Assembly (NCBI RefSeq): GCF_003334785.1
Contig: NZ_QOWV01000032.1
Direction: 5' to 3' (one strand)
Source: Escherichia coli
GTDB lineage: Bacteria; Pseudomonadota; Gammaproteobacteria; Enterobacterales; Enterobacteriaceae
Length of the DNA stretch: 19,881 nt
Shown here: piece after piece, positions 8,787 through 16,968 of the stretch
Layout of the letters: each line of letters opens with the position of its first letter
Numbering within the stretch: position 1 is the stretch's first letter
The notes under the pieces: model-generated
Databases searched by the model: none
Seen by the model: only the letters and a program-made list of their open reading frames with translations
Told to the model about the DNA's origin: nothing
Program-made: the position numbers and the translations under genes

Positions 8787-9254
8787 ATGACAGCGGCAGA
8801 AAATCACACTGTTCCGGAAATGAATAAAACGGTTGAGCAAATGCTGGCACAAGGACAATGGCAGGATGCGCTTGATTTCTGGATTAATAATACCGATTCG
8901 TTAACATTAATTAAATGGCTGGCACAATTCATTTCTCAGTCCTCTTCTGAAGATGATTCGGTACTTTTACAGTCTATTGTAAAATGGAAGGAAGGCGATG
9001 AGGAACAACGCTGGGAAATATTTAAAAACTCGGAGTCTGCCGGATTTTCCTCTCAGACAGGTGCCCTTGGGTTATCATTATTTGTATCACAGGGAAGTCT
9101 AAGTCCGCCCCCGTATGAACCAGTCCATGCACCGTCATGTTCAGAAAAAAAAATTATATATGGTGTCTTAATGACTCAGTCGTGTAAAGCTCATGATACG
9201 CCGGATGAAGGTGTGTTTTTTCTTTTTCAGCATTGGTGTAATAGTCAACCTTAG
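8787..9254 (+). CDS. hypothetical protein (155 aa) between vgrG and PAAR; candidate spike-associated accessory/adaptor or cargo
   Basis: Good RBS (AAGGA) upstream and tight spacing to vgrG (10 bp) and PAAR (8 bp). Trp-rich N-terminal half (QGQWQDALDFWINNTDSLTLIKWLAQFI) and Cys-containing C-terminus. No family recognised by eye. Contains an A9 tract at 9145-9153. Confidence 0.6.
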   Translation: MTAAENHTVPEMNKTVEQMLAQGQWQDALDFWINNTDSLTLIKWLAQFISQSSSEDDSVLLQSIVKWKEGDEEQRWEIFKNSESAGFSSQTGALGLSLFVSQGSLSPPPYEPVHAPSCSEKKIIYGVLMTQSCKAHDTPDEGVFFLFQHWCNSQP

Positions 9255-9262
9255 GAGGGGAT

Positions 9263-9562
9263 ATGCCTCAACCCGCTGCAAGAGTGACTGATATGCATGT
9301 ATGTCCTATGGTGACGCCAGGTTTGCCACCTGTTCCTCATGTAGGAGGCCCCTTGTTACCACCAGGCTCTCCGTCTGTACTCATTGGGGGATTACCGGCA
9401 GCGACGCTGGGGAACCAGGCACTTTGTACCGGGGCAGTGGACGTCGTCATTATGGGCAGTTTTAAAGTTTTTATATGCGGCAAACCGGCCGCACGGATGG
9501 GCGATAACTGTGCTCATGGGGGGGTAATTGTCAGCGGATATCCTCAGGTATTAGTGGGATAA
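9263..9562 (+). CDS. PAAR-domain spike tip protein (stand-alone, no toxin extension)
   Basis: 99 aa with strong RBS AGGAGG. Three PAAR-type repeats visible: PAARVTD, PAATLGNQALC, PAARMGDNCAHGG. Confidence 0.9.
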   Translation: MPQPAARVTDMHVCPMVTPGLPPVPHVGGPLLPPGSPSVLIGGLPAATLGNQALCTGAVDVVIMGSFKVFICGKPAARMGDNCAHGGVIVSGYPQVLVG

Positions 9563-9565
9563 AAA

Positions 9566-10642
9566 ATGAATAAATTCGAGACGGACACATTACTGTTTCC
9601 TGTTATTGGAGAATCGCCGGCAGGTGAAGATATTGAGTATGATCCGGTGTATAGCGAAATACGGGAAGCAAGACAAAATGATCCGGACTACATGTCCCAG
9701 GGGGAATGGGCTGTCAGTGAACCCCGCAGAGCTGACTGGCGAAAGGTAAGAAAATTATGTGAGGTTACTTTACGCAATAAGAGTAAAGACCTGCAGATTA
9801 GTTGCTGGTATGTGGAGTCCCTGACGCAATTGTATTCGCTGGAAGGGCTGCACTGCGGACTGGAATATCTGGCTAAATTTATTTCTCAGTACTGGACTAT
9901 ATGTTGGCCATCGCACGAAGAAGGCCCGGAAATACGTTACAGTAAATTAGTCCGTCTTGATATGGATTTATCCGAGTATCTGAAATCCTGTCCTCTTCTT
10001 GATGATAAAGAAATCACGCTTGCTGAATGGTATAAGGCGCTGGCGTTTGAGCATGGCGCAAGTTTATCTGAAGAGGGAAAGGAAAAATTAATAGAAAGCG
10101 AAGGCGATCACTCGGTTGAAGCGTTCAAAAAATCTGTCGGTAAATATAATACACGCAAGATTAGTGAGCAATTTCTTAAGTTTTCTGATTTGCCAGACAA
10201 AATTGATGAGATTGAATCCTTTTACTTCTTTCATACGCATGAAGACATACATCATATTTTCGCAAAAACCAGACATACCATCAGTGAAATCACTGAGTTA
10301 CTGAGCCGTTTTTTACCACAAGACGTACAGGATACCAATGCAGTTTCACCGTTATCAGTTGAACCCGGGAGCAGGGAGACAGACAGGACGTTGCCGGCGG
10401 AACAGCAGGCGTTTTATGCTGCCTTAACCCCCTCAACAGATAAAGAGATGACAAGGGAGAAAGCGATAGAACAACTGGAAAAAATAGCTATTTTTTTCAG
10501 GCAATCTGAACCCACCAGTCCTGTCCCTTATCTTCTTGAGAGAGCAGTACGCTGGTCAACAATGACTATGTCAGAATGGCTTGAGGAACTACTTAAAGAT
10601 AATGACTCCGTGGAACAAATAAATCGTGTTTTAAAAGGATGA
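9566..10642 (+). CDS. tssA: TssA-family protein (ImpA N-terminal domain), short form
   Basis: 358 aa. The N-terminus GEDIEYDPVYSEIREARQ...WRKVRKLCEVTLRNKSKDLQISCWYVESL...YW matches the ImpA_N signature. Shorter than many TssA proteins. Confidence 0.8.
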   Translation: MNKFETDTLLFPVIGESPAGEDIEYDPVYSEIREARQNDPDYMSQGEWAVSEPRRADWRKVRKLCEVTLRNKSKDLQISCWYVESLTQLYSLEGLHCGLEYLAKFISQYWTICWPSHEEGPEIRYSKLVRLDMDLSEYLKSCPLLDDKEITLAEWYKALAFEHGASLSEEGKEKLIESEGDHSVEAFKKSVGKYNTRKISEQFLKFSDLPDKIDEIESFYFFHTHEDIHHIFAKTRHTISEITELLSRFLPQDVQDTNAVSPLSVEPGSRETDRTLPAEQQAFYAALTPSTDKEMTREKAIEQLEKIAIFFRQSEPTSPVPYLLERAVRWSTMTMSEWLEELLKDNDSVEQINRVLKG

Positions 10643-10649
10643 AAAATTA

Positions 10650-11201
10650 ATGACTGTTAAGGAACTGCTACTGATAACTATGGTATTACCTTTTTTTATT
10701 ACTGCCTGTTCGGATAAGTATTCTGAGCAGGATAAAATACAGGCCATTAATAATGTTGATACTCCATTTGGCGCTGGTATGCTAACTTTTCAGATATCAC
10801 CGGACACACAATTAAACTCACTTAACGAGATATCAAATAGTTGCGCATTATTATTCTTGCAGTCTTCAGGTAAAAAAACATTACAGGACTTAATGAATAA
10901 TCCTGCATTGATTAAACAGTTTTTCAGCGGGTCTGGTAAAGCAGATGGTATTCTTAAAGTTGATAAGTATATCGCAATGCCGGGACAGGAGATAACACTA
11001 CATATAGACAGAAGTGAAGGTGCTAAATATGTGGGGGTTATTGCCGGATATTATCCGTTCCCCGGAAAACAACATATGTTGCTTTTAGATATTCCCGTTG
11101 ATGTTGTTGAGGAAGGTTGGTGGAACAAATCATTACATGCATCACTTTCACCGCTTTCAAAAAATATATCGATGGGTAAAGAAAGTATCAGTATAAAATA
11201 A
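10650..11201 (+). CDS. tssJ: T6SS outer-membrane lipoprotein TssJ
   Basis: 183 aa. Hydrophobic signal peptide ending in a lipobox-like FITAC (Cys ~20). Size and position immediately before tssK fit TssJ. Confidence 0.78.
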   Translation: MTVKELLLITMVLPFFITACSDKYSEQDKIQAINNVDTPFGAGMLTFQISPDTQLNSLNEISNSCALLFLQSSGKKTLQDLMNNPALIKQFFSGSGKADGILKVDKYIAMPGQEITLHIDRSEGAKYVGVIAGYYPFPGKQHMLLLDIPVDVVEEGWWNKSLHASLSPLSKNISMGKESISIK

Positions 11202-11219
11202 TTGTACAGGTATTACTGC

Positions 11220-12599
11220 ATGCAAGAAGAAGAGCAACTTGTTTATTGGTATTCAGGGCTTTACTTACAACCTCAGCACTTTCAGTCCATTGATTTGCAT
11301 CATAGTTTCATGCTGGCCAGAACCAGGCAGTTATCACAACCTCATCATCAGGGTTATTATGAATGTCGTATAAATGATGATCTTCTGAAAGAATACACTG
11401 TTAGAATCGAAAAAATAAAAGCAGTGTTATCTTCAGGACATTATATCGAGTATCCGGGTAACTGTGTGGTGCAGGATAAGTGCCTGACAAATCTCCGGGG
11501 TACAGATCCCGGCACCGTAACGTTGTGGCTTGCTCTTAAGCGATTTAATTCCGGACATAAAAATGTATCTGGCATCAATGATAAACGCGGCTCTGCCAGA
11601 TGGGTAAGTTCCGATGATGAAGGCAACATGCGTAATGTGTATCATGACAGTCAGGATGCCGGTATCACAAGAATAAAATATGATATTCAGATCCTTACCG
11701 ATGAGGAAAAAGAGAATACCACAGACTTTGAATACTTACCTCTGACAAGAATTATTCATGACAATAATACATTGTGTATTGATGATGAATATTCATTTCC
11801 TGCAATGAGGTTATCAGCGAACAGCAAACTTAGAGATAAGATCGCAGAGATTCATGCTGATATTCAATTCTACAAAAATAAACTTGAAGAATACCGATAT
11901 ACAGAACGAACAGTGTCCGATGGACATCTTTATAATTTTTTGATCCTGTGTGCTATTAACAGAATATCACCGCTTCTGTCTTCCTTTATTAATGAAGATG
12001 CCATTCACCCATGGTTATATTATATGGCATTGTGTCAGTTTACAGGGGAAATATCGACATTTAAAAATTCTGTATTTTCAGAGGCAAGAATTGTTGATCT
12101 AACATACAATCATTATGAGCAGGTTTCCTGTTTCAGTAATCTTCAGTATTATATTAAAGTAATGCTTGATAATTTATGTAGAGATAAGATTATCGGTGTT
12201 GAATTTAAAAAGATAACAACAGATACCCTGGTCTGTAATTTTGATGAGTACAGTTCCAGAAATAATTCAGATTACTATATTAAATTAACTTCAGAGACCT
12301 TTAAAAAGAATAACTCAATTGCATTGCCCGAGATTAAGATTGCTCCATCTGAACATATAGATCTGATCATTCAGCATGCGCTTCCAGGCATTACTTTTAC
12401 AGTGATGGATGTCGTTACATCTGAGTTACAGGTAAGAGACAATATCATCTGGTTAAAGATCGATAAACATTCAGAGTTATGGAAGTCAGCTCAGGTCCAG
12501 AAAAGGGTTGCATTTTATTGGTCATGTAGCCCTGATGATTTACTGGTAGAGTTAGTATTATCGCAGGAAAAAATATGCAGTAAGCCGTCTTCCGGCTGA
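11220..12599 (+). CDS. tssK: T6SS baseplate protein TssK
   Basis: N-terminus LVYWYSGLYLQPQHFQSIDLH matches the conserved TssK start (VxWxEGMxLxPQHFQQ). ATG 11220 chosen; the ORF track extends to a TTG at 11202 directly after the tssJ stop. Confidence 0.9.
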   Translation: MQEEEQLVYWYSGLYLQPQHFQSIDLHHSFMLARTRQLSQPHHQGYYECRINDDLLKEYTVRIEKIKAVLSSGHYIEYPGNCVVQDKCLTNLRGTDPGTVTLWLALKRFNSGHKNVSGINDKRGSARWVSSDDEGNMRNVYHDSQDAGITRIKYDIQILTDEEKENTTDFEYLPLTRIIHDNNTLCIDDEYSFPAMRLSANSKLRDKIAEIHADIQFYKNKLEEYRYTERTVSDGHLYNFLILCAINRISPLLSSFINEDAIHPWLYYMALCQFTGEISTFKNSVFSEARIVDLTYNHYEQVSCFSNLQYYIKVMLDNLCRDKIIGVEFKKITTDTLVCNFDEYSSRNNSDYYIKLTSETFKKNNSIALPEIKIAPSEHIDLIIQHALPGITFTVMDVVTSELQVRDNIIWLKIDKHSELWKSAQVQKRVAFYWSCSPDDLLVELVLSQEKICSKPSSG

Positions 12600-12936
12600 G
12601 GGGGCGAACCAGACGGCGGATGGCAGAGAAGGGTCCATTCACTGCCAGTGCCTGAAACAGCTTTTTCTCCGTCAGTGGAATCCGGATCTCAGAACAAGAC
12701 CTGTCAGGCGCTACAGGGAAACCTGATGGCAGAACAGAAAATGGCAGAATGTTCGTGAACACGATGAAGGAAGCTGCATCGCGTTCATGCCTGACCATAT
12801 GTAAGCTCTGCAGTGGTTCGGACATTAAGGAGAGACCTCCGCACAGTGCACGGGTATGTTGCTCACCTGGCGAATGTCAGTATCCGTGGGCAGATTTCAG
12901 TTACAGTTTATCGTTTCCGGGGACAAAACATGTTAT
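12600..12936. other. GC-richer, apparently non-coding block interrupting the otherwise tightly packed operon between tssK and tssL
   Basis: Only intergenic gap >12 bp inside the cluster. Base composition is visibly G+C-richer than the flanks. The octamer ATGGCAGA occurs three times (12620, 12726, 12741). Only short or Cys-rich ORFs of doubtful reality. Confidence 0.5.
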
Positions 12937-13554
12937 ATGAATATTTATGTCATGGAGGTACTGGTGAATATTGTTGAATGCTATATGCCAGTATTTAAAC
13001 TCATATCATCTGTTAAAGTCTTTCCAGAAGAATATGGTGATTACGACAGTACCAGAAAGCAGATAATTGATACTGTTGAAGATGTCGTGCGCAATAGTGA
13101 AAAAATATCTTTAAGTGACAGTGAACTGGATGCGGCATTTTATTCAATAGTTGTTATGCTTGATGAGGTTATTTTGTGCTCTGAACTTCCGTACAGAAAA
13201 GAATGGCGCGATAATCTTTTACAGATTAAATATTTTGGACATTCCACTGGCGGTGTTGAGTTTTTTAACATGCTTAATAAAGTCATTGAATCCGGAAGTC
13301 AGGTTGCATGGGTTTTTCTCTTATGTCTCTTACTTGGATTCAGGGGGAAATATTCTGTAAGCAATGATGATGAAATCCTGGATTATATATCAAGACTGAA
13401 AAAACAATGCGGGTTAAATATTCGTGTTGAAGAAAAAAATAAGATCGCATTTAAACAAAAAAAGAATAAATCATCATGGTTTAATTTTTATTTGTCACTT
13501 GCAGGTATCATTATTATTTATTTCGTATTGTTGTTTGTGATATATGTGAGATGA
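12937..13554 (+). CDS. tssL: T6SS membrane protein TssL (DotU-like), short form with C-terminal TM anchor
   Basis: DotU-like cytosolic region followed by a single C-terminal hydrophobic helix (WFNFYLSLAGIIIIYFVLLFVIYV). Start uncertain: in-frame ATGs at 12856, 12937 and 12952; 12937 chosen because 12856-12936 lies in the GC-rich block. Confidence 0.78.
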   Translation: MNIYVMEVLVNIVECYMPVFKLISSVKVFPEEYGDYDSTRKQIIDTVEDVVRNSEKISLSDSELDAAFYSIVVMLDEVILCSELPYRKEWRDNLLQIKYFGHSTGGVEFFNMLNKVIESGSQVAWVFLLCLLLGFRGKYSVSNDDEILDYISRLKKQCGLNIRVEEKNKIAFKQKKNKSSWFNFYLSLAGIIIIYFVLLFVIYVR

Positions 13555-13560
13555 TCTCTT

Positions 13561-16500
13561 ATGCTTAAGAAGATATTTTCATTGTTTCTCTGGATTTTTG
13601 TGTCTGTTTTCGTTTTATCTGTTTGTTATGTCATTGGCGTGTTCAGAAACTGGACAGATACTACAACTGTATTTTACTGGATTTTTGTAATTCTGGTTAC
13701 ACTCACCCTGAAATTGATTGTGGATTGTATCCATAATTACTTTTCGTCAGGTAAATACAGAAAGCTGGTGAGGTTATTTTCCAGGAAAAAAAGAACAATA
13801 ACACTTGATTCATACTTCAGGAAAGGAATGAATATCATAAGTAAAAAAGGAAGAGGCGTGGTCCCCTGGTTTTTACTTACGGGGGATTCAGAAAAAAACG
13901 CTTCCCTGCTTAAGGATATTAATCTTCCCGTCTTTCACAGTAATGAGTTAAATGGTATTTCTCAACAATTCAGAACAATTCGTTGGTGGTTTTTCAGGGA
14001 TTCAAGTGTACTGGAGTTGTCAGGTAAGATATATGACAACCCGGGGGTGCTGAACTCTGTGATAGGTTTTTTATCAGCACGTAACTCTAAAAAACAACCA
14101 CCTCATGGCATTGTTCTGGTTATTCCTGTTGAAACGTTACTTGATCATGATTACTCCTGTATTCAGGTGTTATCTCAAAAAACAAGAAATTTTACAGAAC
14201 AACTGTCGTCACACTTACATCATAATATCCCAGTTTTTCTGGTTATAAGTGGATGCGAGCACATCAGTGGGTATTCATCGCTGGCACAAAAAATTCATCA
14301 AAAAAATAACAATGGGTATCCGGTATTTTGGGCAACCAATAAATCAGACACAAATGCATCTGAATATGACTCATCATATATATTGTCATCATTAAAATCT
14401 AATATTACGATAGAAATATGTCATGTACTTGATGATACATTGAGTGACCAGGAAAAAAACGAGATCCTGTTGTTTCCGGATAAATTGAATGATCTAAAAC
14501 ATTCACTGGATGTGTTTATTTCAACATTCAGTATCGATAACGTGTTTTTTTCTCAGACAGAAGTCTCCGGGGTCTGTTTATCTGGTGAACTCGTTTCGGG
14601 TAAGGATAAAAATTGTACTTTTTCTGATGTTTTAGTTTCTGAGATCCTACCACAAATACAGAACTCAGAAGTTATTCACGTTAATAAACGAAGAATAAAA
14701 ATGTCATTCAGATCCGTTATGGTTATGACGGCGCTGTGCTTTATTGGATATAGTGCATATTGTTCATATCATATATATGATGTCAGGCAAGGTTCTGTGG
14801 AGATCAGCCCTGCATTCCTGACTGAGCAAATATTAAAATATGAAGATAAAGTCAGATCTAATATACTTTATTTACCTTTTAAACCGGCATTGAATGATAA
14901 ATATTTATTTTTCAGAGAGTCTCTTTATAACAGTAGCAGATTCGAGACCCGTCCTGTTTCATGGCGCGTTGATGAATATAAGAAAAAATTCCTTGCGGCT
15001 TCCCCATCAGGAAAGCGTGAATTGATTCTGTCGCTTGCCTCATCGCTTATCGGTTGGGATAAGATGGTTAAGGATGAATCACTGCTTGATTTAACAACAT
15101 TTCCGGGTATTCATGAATCAATAAAAATAACCAGACCTTATGATAAAATATCATCAATAGCTTCACTGGCTTTAGAAAGAGATGAGATACAAAAAAATCA
15201 TGGAAGTGAAAATATTGATGTGTTCAGAAAACTCCTTAGCGAGTTTATTCAGAGTGATCCATCTTATTCATGGTTTGTTTCTGAATATGTTGATATTCCG
15301 GCCGTAAAAGTTACGGATTTCTGGGAAGATGAAAACGCATCTGTCAGTCTGTCTGGTATATGGACTCAGGAGGGACAGAATAAACTTCATCACTGGTATG
15401 AGAATATCAAAGAGGCATATGGACGTGATACGGTTCCGGAAGCGTTTTCATCTTTTGTGCAGTACCTGGAAGAAAGTCGTCAGGAGCATTTCAGACAGTT
15501 CATCATGGCTGTCGCAAGGGAGCGTAAAGATTCACATTCAGGGTTAATGAGTCCGCTGCAGTTGACAGATATCATACAAAATCGTTCATCTGAGCATAAA
15601 TTCTTTAAGTTTGTTGATGATGAATTACATAATATCCCGGCAAGTTCAGCGCAGGACTGGCTTTCTGATTTCAGGCTGCTTTATCGTCTGTTTTCTCTTA
15701 AAGTGGATAACGGAATGAAGCGTCAGATAGAGCAGTTTGACATCATGGTACGTATATATCTGATGTCTGTTTTTAATAACAGTCAGATGAACAGGACAAC
15801 GGCTCATGTAACAGCATGGAGAGACTGGCAGAATGTGCTACGTAATGCCGTAAATTCAGAGTTACATACAGCATCATCCGTTGAACTGATCCGTAATGCT
15901 ATGCGTTCAGACCCAAAAAACAAGCTGGTAATATTATTTGATGAATTTGAAAAGGTTCGTTCAGTGATTAACAGTAATAATACAGATCCAGTGATTGATT
16001 CTGTATGGGATATTTATGAACGGCAAAATTATAAACTTCTCGACCATGCAGTCACGTATACGGGGTGCAGGGTTGATGAACAATGGAGAAATTCTGTTTT
16101 AAGCCAGTTAAATTCAGATAAACACAATTCCAGTCATTCTGAAATGCAGGGTAAAATATATAAAAACATTATTGGTTTTTTAAATGGATCCGCTAACGGT
16201 GTTTTAGCACTTGATGCCGAAGGTGCCAGAGTATTGTCGTTCAGGGAAAGAAGTATACCGTTTACGCCTTCATTCATTAGTTTTCTCAATGACGTTGTTT
16301 CTCCGGATGATTTGCTTGACGTTCAGCTCAGAGACCGAACGCAAAACAAGGATGAGCTGATAAATGTACAGGGACAATTAGACGTACTGAATCAGACCCT
16401 GCAAAAGATTGAATCACAGCCTTACAAAATGACGGTAAGTAGTGCACCTGCGACGATTTCAGGTCATCATGGCGTTAAACCAACAGGTACAACTCTGACT

Positions 16501-16965
16501 CTTGAGTGCAAAACAGGTAACAGCAGTATAAGAAGCATGAATTTTGCCGATTCAGGTCTTTTTACCTGGTATCCAGGAAGTTGTCATTCTGTCAGCATTG
16601 ATATTTCGTTCCCTGACTTTTCCACCACCTATAAATTCACAGGTGAAACAGCCTGGATTGATTTTATCAACAAGTTTTCGGATGGAGAGGATGAGTTAAT
16701 GACAAAGGACTTTTCTCCGGAATCAAGAAGTTTTCTTGAATCAATGGGTATAAAAAGTATCCTCGTCCGTTACAAACTGAGTGATACCGGCGATCTCAGT
16801 CAGGCATATATCGAATGGGAACAGTTAAAACAGGAAAAGGATAAACTTGAAAATTTGCAGATTAGTCTGAGTAATAAACTGCTTACCACTCATAGCTGGG
16901 AGAAAAGTGGCTGGATTTCCAGATTGCCTGGCAAAATAACAATATGTCCGGCAGTACAGGAGTGA
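13561..16965 (+). CDS. tssM: T6SS membrane complex protein TssM (IcmF-like) with degenerate Walker A
   Basis: 1134 aa. Two N-terminal TM helices, cytoplasmic domain, third TM (MSFRSVMVMTALCFIGYSAYC), large C-terminal periplasmic region. Where canonical TssM has PWYL..G.PG.GK[ST], this one reads VPWFLLTGDSEKNAS. Confidence 0.95.
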   Translation: MLKKIFSLFLWIFVSVFVLSVCYVIGVFRNWTDTTTVFYWIFVILVTLTLKLIVDCIHNYFSSGKYRKLVRLFSRKKRTITLDSYFRKGMNIISKKGRGVVPWFLLTGDSEKNASLLKDINLPVFHSNELNGISQQFRTIRWWFFRDSSVLELSGKIYDNPGVLNSVIGFLSARNSKKQPPHGIVLVIPVETLLDHDYSCIQVLSQKTRNFTEQLSSHLHHNIPVFLVISGCEHISGYSSLAQKIHQKNNNGYPVFWATNKSDTNASEYDSSYILSSLKSNITIEICHVLDDTLSDQEKNEILLFPDKLNDLKHSLDVFISTFSIDNVFFSQTEVSGVCLSGELVSGKDKNCTFSDVLVSEILPQIQNSEVIHVNKRRIKMSFRSVMVMTALCFIGYSAYCSYHIYDVRQGSVEISPAFLTEQILKYEDKVRSNILYLPFKPALNDKYLFFRESLYNSSRFETRPVSWRVDEYKKKFLAASPSGKRELILSLASSLIGWDKMVKDESLLDLTTFPGIHESIKITRPYDKISSIASLALERDEIQKNHGSENIDVFRKLLSEFIQSDPSYSWFVSEYVDIPAVKVTDFWEDENASVSLSGIWTQEGQNKLHHWYENIKEAYGRDTVPEAFSSFVQYLEESRQEHFRQFIMAVARERKDSHSGLMSPLQLTDIIQNRSSEHKFFKFVDDELHNIPASSAQDWLSDFRLLYRLFSLKVDNGMKRQIEQFDIMVRIYLMSVFNNSQMNRTTAHVTAWRDWQNVLRNAVNSELHTASSVELIRNAMRSDPKNKLVILFDEFEKVRSVINSNNTDPVIDSVWDIYERQNYKLLDHAVTYTGCRVDEQWRNSVLSQLNSDKHNSSHSEMQGKIYKNIIGFLNGSANGVLALDAEGARVLSFRERSIPFTPSFISFLNDVVSPDDLLDVQLRDRTQNKDELINVQGQLDVLNQTLQKIESQPYKMTVSSAPATISGHHGVKPTGTTLTLECKTGNSSIRSMNFADSGLFTWYPGSCHSVSIDISFPDFSTTYKFTGETAWIDFINKFSDGEDELMTKDFSPESRSFLESMGIKSILVRYKLSDTGDLSQAYIEWEQLKQEKDKLENLQISLSNKLLTTHSWEKSGWISRLPGKITICPAVQE

Positions 16966-16968
16966 GAA

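Follow-up and report, generated by a model that had tools for sequence, protein, structure and literature searches.

The tssA gene of an Escherichia coli T6SS operon most probably encodes a short-form TssA (TssA_S, clade TssA1 of Dix et al. 2018) that carries a Burkholderia cenocepacia-type C-terminal domain (CTD) and serves as a ring-forming core subunit of the secretion system; we put the probability of this reading at about 0.9. The DNA analysed, referred to here as the window, is a stretch of 19,881 nucleotides. Within it the gene runs from an ATG to a stop codon (358 codons plus the stop), as seen in the list of open reading frames and in the translation, and its product is an acidic protein of 358 aa (41.7 kDa, pI 4.9). 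RefSeq assigns the name tssA to the same coordinates (WP_087896590.1) in a plasmid with 100% identity over 2.5 kb. The assignment draws on identity, domain layout, fold match, the motif and salt-bridge residues, constraint and genomic context, all observed for this gene.

NCBIfam holds two TssA equivalog models, one for the short form and one for the long. The short model (TIGR03363) was matched at positions 4-352 of 353 with 226.2 bits, above its cutoff of 160.85, whereas the long model (TIGR03362, 476 positions) reached 77 bits against a cutoff of 230 and did so through residues 8-118 only. Published ranges for the two forms are 340-380 aa (~40 kDa) for TssA_S and 470-540 aa for the long TssA_L (PMC11106082, PMC7896307). 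When 1.84 billion cluster representatives were scanned in full with HMMER, 5114 relatives were obtained. Full-length sequences make up 146 of the best 150; their median is 365.5 aa, and 72% of the 146 fall between 340 and 380 aa. The length is 348-361 aa in close relatives from E. coli, Salmonella, Yersinia and Serratia, whose architecture is the same.

These lengths bear on an earlier interpretation made from the sequence alone (the sequence-only reading), which described the protein as shorter than many TssA proteins and suggested that its size marks a particular class. The size does mark a class, the short form, but the shortness itself is not noteworthy: 358 aa is a typical length for that class, and "shorter than many" is true only against the long form. 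The oddity that the reading implied is refuted, since the TIGR03363 match, the length and the likeness to both B. cenocepacia domains identify a standard-length member of a characterised TssA class. The useful outcome is therefore a negative one, in that short length and a compact C-terminus define the short-TssA class and are no anomaly. The protein is already annotated, its class is structurally characterised and its T6SS type (aai/T6SS-3) is known in E. coli.

Table 1. Positions of tssA, its protein domains and the neighbouring T6SS genes. Positions are those of the window, except in the last row, where they refer to two other loci (L004 and L006).
Feature	Position	Strand	Evidence
tssB-tssC sheath genes, expected docking partner of Nt1	1087..3044	+	TIGR03358 166 bits, TIGR03355 674 bits
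hcp (AaiC-like), tssE, tssF, tssG, vgrG, DUF6931, PAAR, upstream of tssA	3054..9562	+	NCBIfam, RefSeq; DUF6931 Pfam E 1.7e-12
tssA ORF, short-form TssA (AaiJ-like)	9566..10642	+	ORF list, TIGR03363, RefSeq tssA
Nt1 domain, residues 1-250, 11 predicted helices, presumed sheath/baseplate docking	9566..10315	+	AlphaFold2, Foldseek, phmmer to 6hs5
ImpA_N region, residues 12-130	9599..9955	+	PF06812 E 5.7e-30, model positions 3-116 of 119
Variable linker, residues ~251-295 (~45), predicted disordered	10316..10450	+	pLDDT, identity, dN/dS
C-terminal oligomerisation domain (CTD), residues 296-358 (63), four helices	10451..10639	+	phmmer, Foldseek, dN/dS
EPxxP signature EPTSP, residues 315-319, loop between CTD helices one and two	10508..10522	+	translation
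tssJ, tssK, tssL, tssM, tssH (clpV), downstream of tssA	10650..19497	+	NCBIfam, RefSeq
TagA-like genes in two other relatives	L004:18855-19949; L006:19654-20736		ImpA_N, one hydrophobic helix, VasL; family 360-383 aa

Domain layout, predicted fold and selective constraint

In clade TssA1 the Nt1 domain, of ~250 aa, contains ImpA_N and is joined through a variable linker (40-60 aa) to a conserved CTD (60-75 aa) that bears the EPxxP motif (Dix et al. 2018; PMC6232143), and all three parts were found in the window TssA (Table 1). ImpA_N was its sole significant Pfam domain. The sequence-only reading had recognised both a clear, canonical ImpA_N domain and a compact C-terminal region, and both descriptions were borne out, the latter in the form of the linker and CTD listed in Table 1.

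The fold was predicted with AlphaFold2 as a single chain, using a 25-sequence alignment, and the model has a mean pLDDT of 81. It shows 11 helices in residues 1-250, where pLDDT is mostly 80-96, a low-confidence stretch at residues 256-292 and four helices within residues 297-357; the combination of 11 Nt1 helices and four CTD helices is the layout described by Dix et al. (PMC6232143). Within the linker pLDDT drops below 50 at residues 256-277 and 287-292, and the CTD helices are predicted at residues 297-314, 319-332, 335-342 and 346-357. When the protein was searched against PDB sequences with phmmer, the significant matches were T6SS TssA entries only, the best being the Nt1 domain of B. 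cenocepacia TssA (6hs5, E 1.1e-14); its CTD (6h8f/6hs6, E 1.6e-12) was matched by query residues 296-356. Foldseek against the PDB likewise ranked 6HS5 at the top (E 1.3e-9, TM(target) 0.80 over 250 columns), and residues 1-250 superpose on the complete 249-residue chain of that entry, leaving no space for an Nt2 domain. Next came the CTD chains of 6HS6 (TM(target) 0.85, rmsd 1.2-2.1 Å, 39-43% identity), and the other matches were non-specific helical repeat proteins.

The closest structural counterpart, B. cenocepacia TssA (I35_RS01755; TssA1-B; 6HS5, 6HS6, 6H8F, 6H8E), likewise has a flexible linker that joins an 11-helix Nt1 domain containing ImpA_N to a four-helix CTD, and the EPxxP loop and an R/E salt-bridge pair are common to the two proteins. 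In contrast to the similarity of their CTDs, the Nt1 domains are only ~21% identical; the B. cenocepacia protein also carries EPHSP where the window TssA has EPTSP, and it is 373 rather than 358 aa long.

Selective constraint was measured against the chromosomal tssA copy of E. coli O104:H4, which is 87% identical at the DNA level. The dN/dS value was 0.14 overall; split by segment, it was 0.10 for Nt1, 0.43 for the linker and 0.054 for the CTD, and identity to distant homologues in the alignment was 37% for ImpA_N, 5% for the linker and 48% for the CTD. Hence tssA is a real gene under purifying selection, and by segment both measures place the strongest constraint on the compact C-terminal region, which is not a truncation.

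It could be argued that the protein is instead a truncated or decaying long TssA, which has lost Nt2 and a VasJ-type CTD and is possibly non-functional in an IS-ridden plasmid island. The island is indeed flanked by IS remnants, tssM is frameshifted in one near-identical plasmid, and Pfam gave a faint VasJ match (E 0.024, residues 300-334). However, this history is refuted by the end-to-end match to TIGR03363, by the 348-361 aa length and the architecture shared with relatives, and by a constraint that is strongest on the CTD, and we consider it extremely improbable. In addition, the window TssA has no WEP motif, which is a hallmark of the long-form CTD (PMC6232143), tssM is intact in the window, and tssJ begins 8 nt after the tssA stop codon. 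Long TssA proteins (EAEC EC042_4540, V. cholerae VCA0119, A. hydrophila AHA1844; TssA2 or class A) have only the N-terminal ImpA_N region in common with the window TssA; they possess Nt2 and a VasJ-type WEP CTD that forms 10- or 12-mers, none of which is present here.

The sequence-only reading had also raised the possibility of a TagA-like protein. Such proteins, class B among those with ImpA_N, would be accessory factors rather than core TssAs, with ImpA_N fused to a membrane anchor by which the extended sheath is arrested and held. ImpA_N is common to the window TssA and to TagA proteins, but the remaining domain content refutes this identity: a hydrophobic membrane segment is lacking (the 19-residue Kyte-Doolittle mean peaks at 0.61), and Pfam detected no VasL domain. 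Moreover, the C-terminus is homologous to the ring domain of B. cenocepacia TssA, the full-length TIGR03363 match lies above its cutoff, and a separate TagA-like gene (ImpA_N, helix, VasL) exists 3′ of tssH in the lineage. The chance that this tssA product is a TagA-like accessory is accordingly negligible.

The EPxxP motif and the sub-clade of the C-terminal domain

In the 25-sequence alignment P316, S318 and P319 of the EPTSP motif are invariant and E315 is nearly so; R297, which lies outside the motif, is invariant as well. R297 aligns with B. cenocepacia R306 and E315 with E324, and in the B. cenocepacia protein these two residues form an inter-subunit salt bridge (PMC6232143, in which EPxxP is also defined).

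Dix et al. distinguished sub-clade TssA1-A, with EPSxP (e.g. P. aeruginosa PA0082), from TssA1-B, with EP(H/Q)SP (e.g. B. cenocepacia) (PMC6232143). Read literally, EPTSP fits neither rule, as threonine replaces the H/Q of B and the S of A. Among the 146 relatives taken from the best 150 of 5114, EPHSP was counted 108 times, EPSSP 17 times and EPTSP twice, and a neighbour-joining tree of the 146 representatives placed the query in a 25-member EP(S/T/G/C)SP branch beside the EPHSP majority. Sub-clade A was considered, given that EPSSP, the motif of the nearest 50%-cluster representatives, conforms to EPSxP, and that the query sits in the EP(S/T/G)SP branch; it was ruled out by the A-type sequence that follows the motif. 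According to Suppl. Fig. 2a of Dix et al., available as noisy machine-read text, the A-type CTD continues after the motif with ..LL.RA..LVG.DF.E and the B-type CTD with PV.YL..RA..W..M.L.EWL..V.KD. At this position the window TssA reads PVPYLLERAVRWSTMTMSEWLEELLKD, in which, judged against the same machine-read figure, the B-type pattern is present and the A-type pattern absent.

The assignment to sub-clade B therefore follows from the rest of the CTD sequence and from the PDB match rather than from the motif; the PDB contains no A-type structure that would make the comparison symmetrical. Taken at the level of sequence, the window TssA appears to be a TssA1 member whose CTD is clearly B-type and whose motif is a variant. 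The motif rule by which Dix et al. separate the sub-clades thus leaves out an enterobacterial branch in which EPTSP or EPSSP is combined with a B-type domain, an observation of modest value.

Two characterised pseudomonad proteins illustrate the distinction. P. putida TssA1 (PP3088) is short, has a B-type CTD (EPHSPV.YL..RA..W.NMPLSEWL) and belongs, like the window TssA, to group 4B/i4b, making it the best functional analogy. P. aeruginosa TssA1 (PA0082; TssA1-A; H1-T6SS) is also a short protein, of the 344 aa class, in which ImpA_N is followed by a linker and a small EPxxP CTD, and it forms rings; however, its A-type CTD (EPSSPV..LL.RA..LV..DF.EL) is without the RW..M...EWL..KD pattern of the window TssA, and it pairs with TagJ/ImpE in group 3 clusters.

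Proposed ring assembly and sheath docking

The mechanism proposed here takes stoichiometry, partners and localisation from characterised homologues. In B. cenocepacia the CTD ring contains 32 subunits (D16), with the Nt1 domains hanging on flexible linkers (PMC6232143). By analogy, the 63-residue CTD of the window TssA would self-assemble into a large, double-layered hollow ring; the 32-mer is known from structure in B. cenocepacia, whereas the ring in the present low-GC enterobacterial aai-type cluster is predicted by homology. The flexible linker of ~45 residues would tether the 250-residue Nt1 domains at the ring periphery, from where they may bind the cognate TssBC sheath and baseplate subunits. 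In short TssAs, Nt1 binds its cognate TssBC sheath with high specificity while the CTDs are interchangeable (PMC11106082), and B. cenocepacia TssA contacts TssE, TssF, TssK, Hcp, VgrG, TssC and cytoplasmic parts of the membrane complex (PMC6232143).

If the window TssA behaves as its analogues do, it would prime sheath/tube polymerisation at the baseplate and probably ride the growing distal end of the sheath. [quoted passage not shown] The main rival on mechanism is a short TssA that acts at the baseplate only, a "class C" initiator as defined by Schneider et al. It has a precedent in P. aeruginosa TssA1, likewise short, which localised at sheath initiation sites and was proposed to act without a role in polymerisation (PMC6745524). 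Nevertheless, we regard a baseplate-only role as unlikely: the P. aeruginosa fusion worked only beside a native copy and its authors left a dual role possible (PMC6745524), and the closer analogue is PP3088 of P. putida K1 (group 4B, TssA1-B-type), which travels from the baseplate to the distal end (PMC7896307). Nothing in the sequence itself discriminates baseplate-only from distal-end-riding behaviour. That the class of TssA bears on firing dynamics is known biology according to the literature.

The T6SS cluster, its plasmid island and a TagA-like gene

The window contains a complete T6SS operon on one strand, in the order tssB, tssC, hcp, tssE, tssF, tssG, vgrG, DUF6931, PAAR, tssA, tssJ, tssK, tssL, tssM and tssH (Table 1). 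Its open reading frames of at least 200 aa are all T6SS core genes, and the only unassigned ones encode a 122-aa protein and a 155-aa DUF6931 protein. A 30-kDa partner of the TagB/TagJ type has been described for many short-TssA systems; none was found in the window among its open reading frames or by NCBIfam and Pfam. In a soil-metagenome relative of the EPHSP type, an ImpE/TagJ gene adjoins tssA.

The GC content of the window is ~39%, far lower than that of the E. coli chromosome, which is roughly 51%. Over 2.5 kb the window shows 100% identity to E. coli plasmids such as NZ_AP022179.1 (locus L001), in which remnants of IS100/IS21 and IS3 flank the island within an IncI-like type IV pilus (pil)/tra region (L001:1-5150 and 24873-30501). 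The pilus ATPase gene of this region is truncated. Of 5426 complete E. coli genomes, 158 have related copies, 107 on plasmids and 51 on chromosomes. The chromosomal form corresponds to the aai cluster of EAEC/O104:H4; in O104:H4 its gene order is identical and includes the gene that RefSeq names aaiC/Hcp2, and the aaiA-U cluster is the T6SS-3 of E. coli (PMC10725161), a system of subclass i4b (PMC12282107). The window TssA is therefore the AaiJ-position counterpart in an aai/T6SS-3 (i4b) cluster, located on a conjugative-type plasmid. A short TssA is expected in T6SS groups 3-5, including 4B (PMC7896307). The AaiJ-position TssA of EAEC/O104:H4 also has 358 aa and EPTSP, with 85% protein and 87% DNA identity to the window protein and gene; the two differ in that the O104:H4 copy is chromosomal, whereas the window copy is plasmid-borne, IS-flanked and embedded in the IncI-like pil/tra region.

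In the matching plasmid a TagA-like gene of 383 aa (L001:26163-27314, plus strand) is found ~1.3 kb past the 3′ end of the window and 1.6 kb past tssH, and in the plasmid of the window an IS3 remnant precedes this gene. The encoded protein has the same architecture as V. cholerae TagA, with ImpA_N at residues 14-112 (E 9.8e-6), a hydrophobic helix at ~228-246 and VasL at 278-365 (E 5.3e-8); a PDB sequence search with it gave no match. In two relatives, one from Yersinia enterocolitica and the other a more divergent E. coli, homologous genes stand directly 3′ of tssH, and the three proteins are 32-43% identical over their full length. The TagA-like gene is as AT-rich as the T6SS cluster, and megablast matched it to 32 complete genomes of E. 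coli, where it is mostly plasmid-borne. It was absent from the 5 kb downstream of the chromosomal cluster in O104:H4, and none was seen in the Serratia relative.

Short TssA and a TagA-like gene thus co-occur in this lineage, and a functional pairing of the two products is hypothetical. A published survey describes short-TssA systems as being without a TagA-like partner. Dataset S1 of Bernal et al. lists no group 4B cluster from E. coli, indicating that the survey did not cover the lineage of the window. A short ring-type TssA and a TagA-like protein encoded together in the aai-type (T6SS-3) clusters of E. coli and Yersinia might therefore break the published rule, a suggestion that we offer tentatively. 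If the two proteins do cooperate, short-TssA systems could also use membrane anchoring at the distal end, and the connection that has been proposed between TssA class and firing dynamics would have to be revised. A branch that combines a short TssA with a TagA-like gene is likewise of modest value, as a system in which one could ask if the way a sheath is stabilised really depends on TssA class.

Several further features of the cluster and its surroundings were noted. Downstream of the TagA-like gene and outside the window, a 171-aa protein (L001:27480-27995, plus strand) is labelled "kinesin" by RefSeq and has no NCBIfam match; the label is probably wrong, and the protein could be an effector or immunity candidate. 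Upstream of tssB, a 122-aa open reading frame (349-717, plus strand) has no Pfam or NCBIfam match and is a hypothetical protein in RefSeq. Between tssK and the RefSeq start of tssL the otherwise tightly packed operon contains a gap of ~340 nt (12600-12936) with ~50% GC, which also occurs in O104:H4, is shorter in Yersinia and is absent in Serratia; an antisense open reading frame of 126 aa (12445-12825) overlaps it, and an Rfam scan of the whole window, the gap included, gave no match.

TssJ, TssE and Hcp gave weak or no NCBIfam matches, and TssM (13561-16965, plus strand, 1134 aa) is highly divergent, reaching 45 bits with TIGR03348 (cutoff 388) via residues 170-340. For the TssM proteins of relatives only the IcmF-related_N Pfam domain was recorded, while TssM of the soil-metagenome locus (L008) matches all four IcmF domains. 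In the near-identical plasmid NZ_AP022179.1, tssM (L001:18562-21967) carries a 1-nt indel at window position ~16718 and is annotated by RefSeq as a frameshifted pseudogene. Finally, the DUF6931 protein (8787-9254, plus strand, 155 aa) occupies the AaiH position between vgrG and the PAAR gene; its gene is kept in every relative examined (E. coli, Yersinia and Serratia), and the protein may be a candidate spike-associated adaptor.
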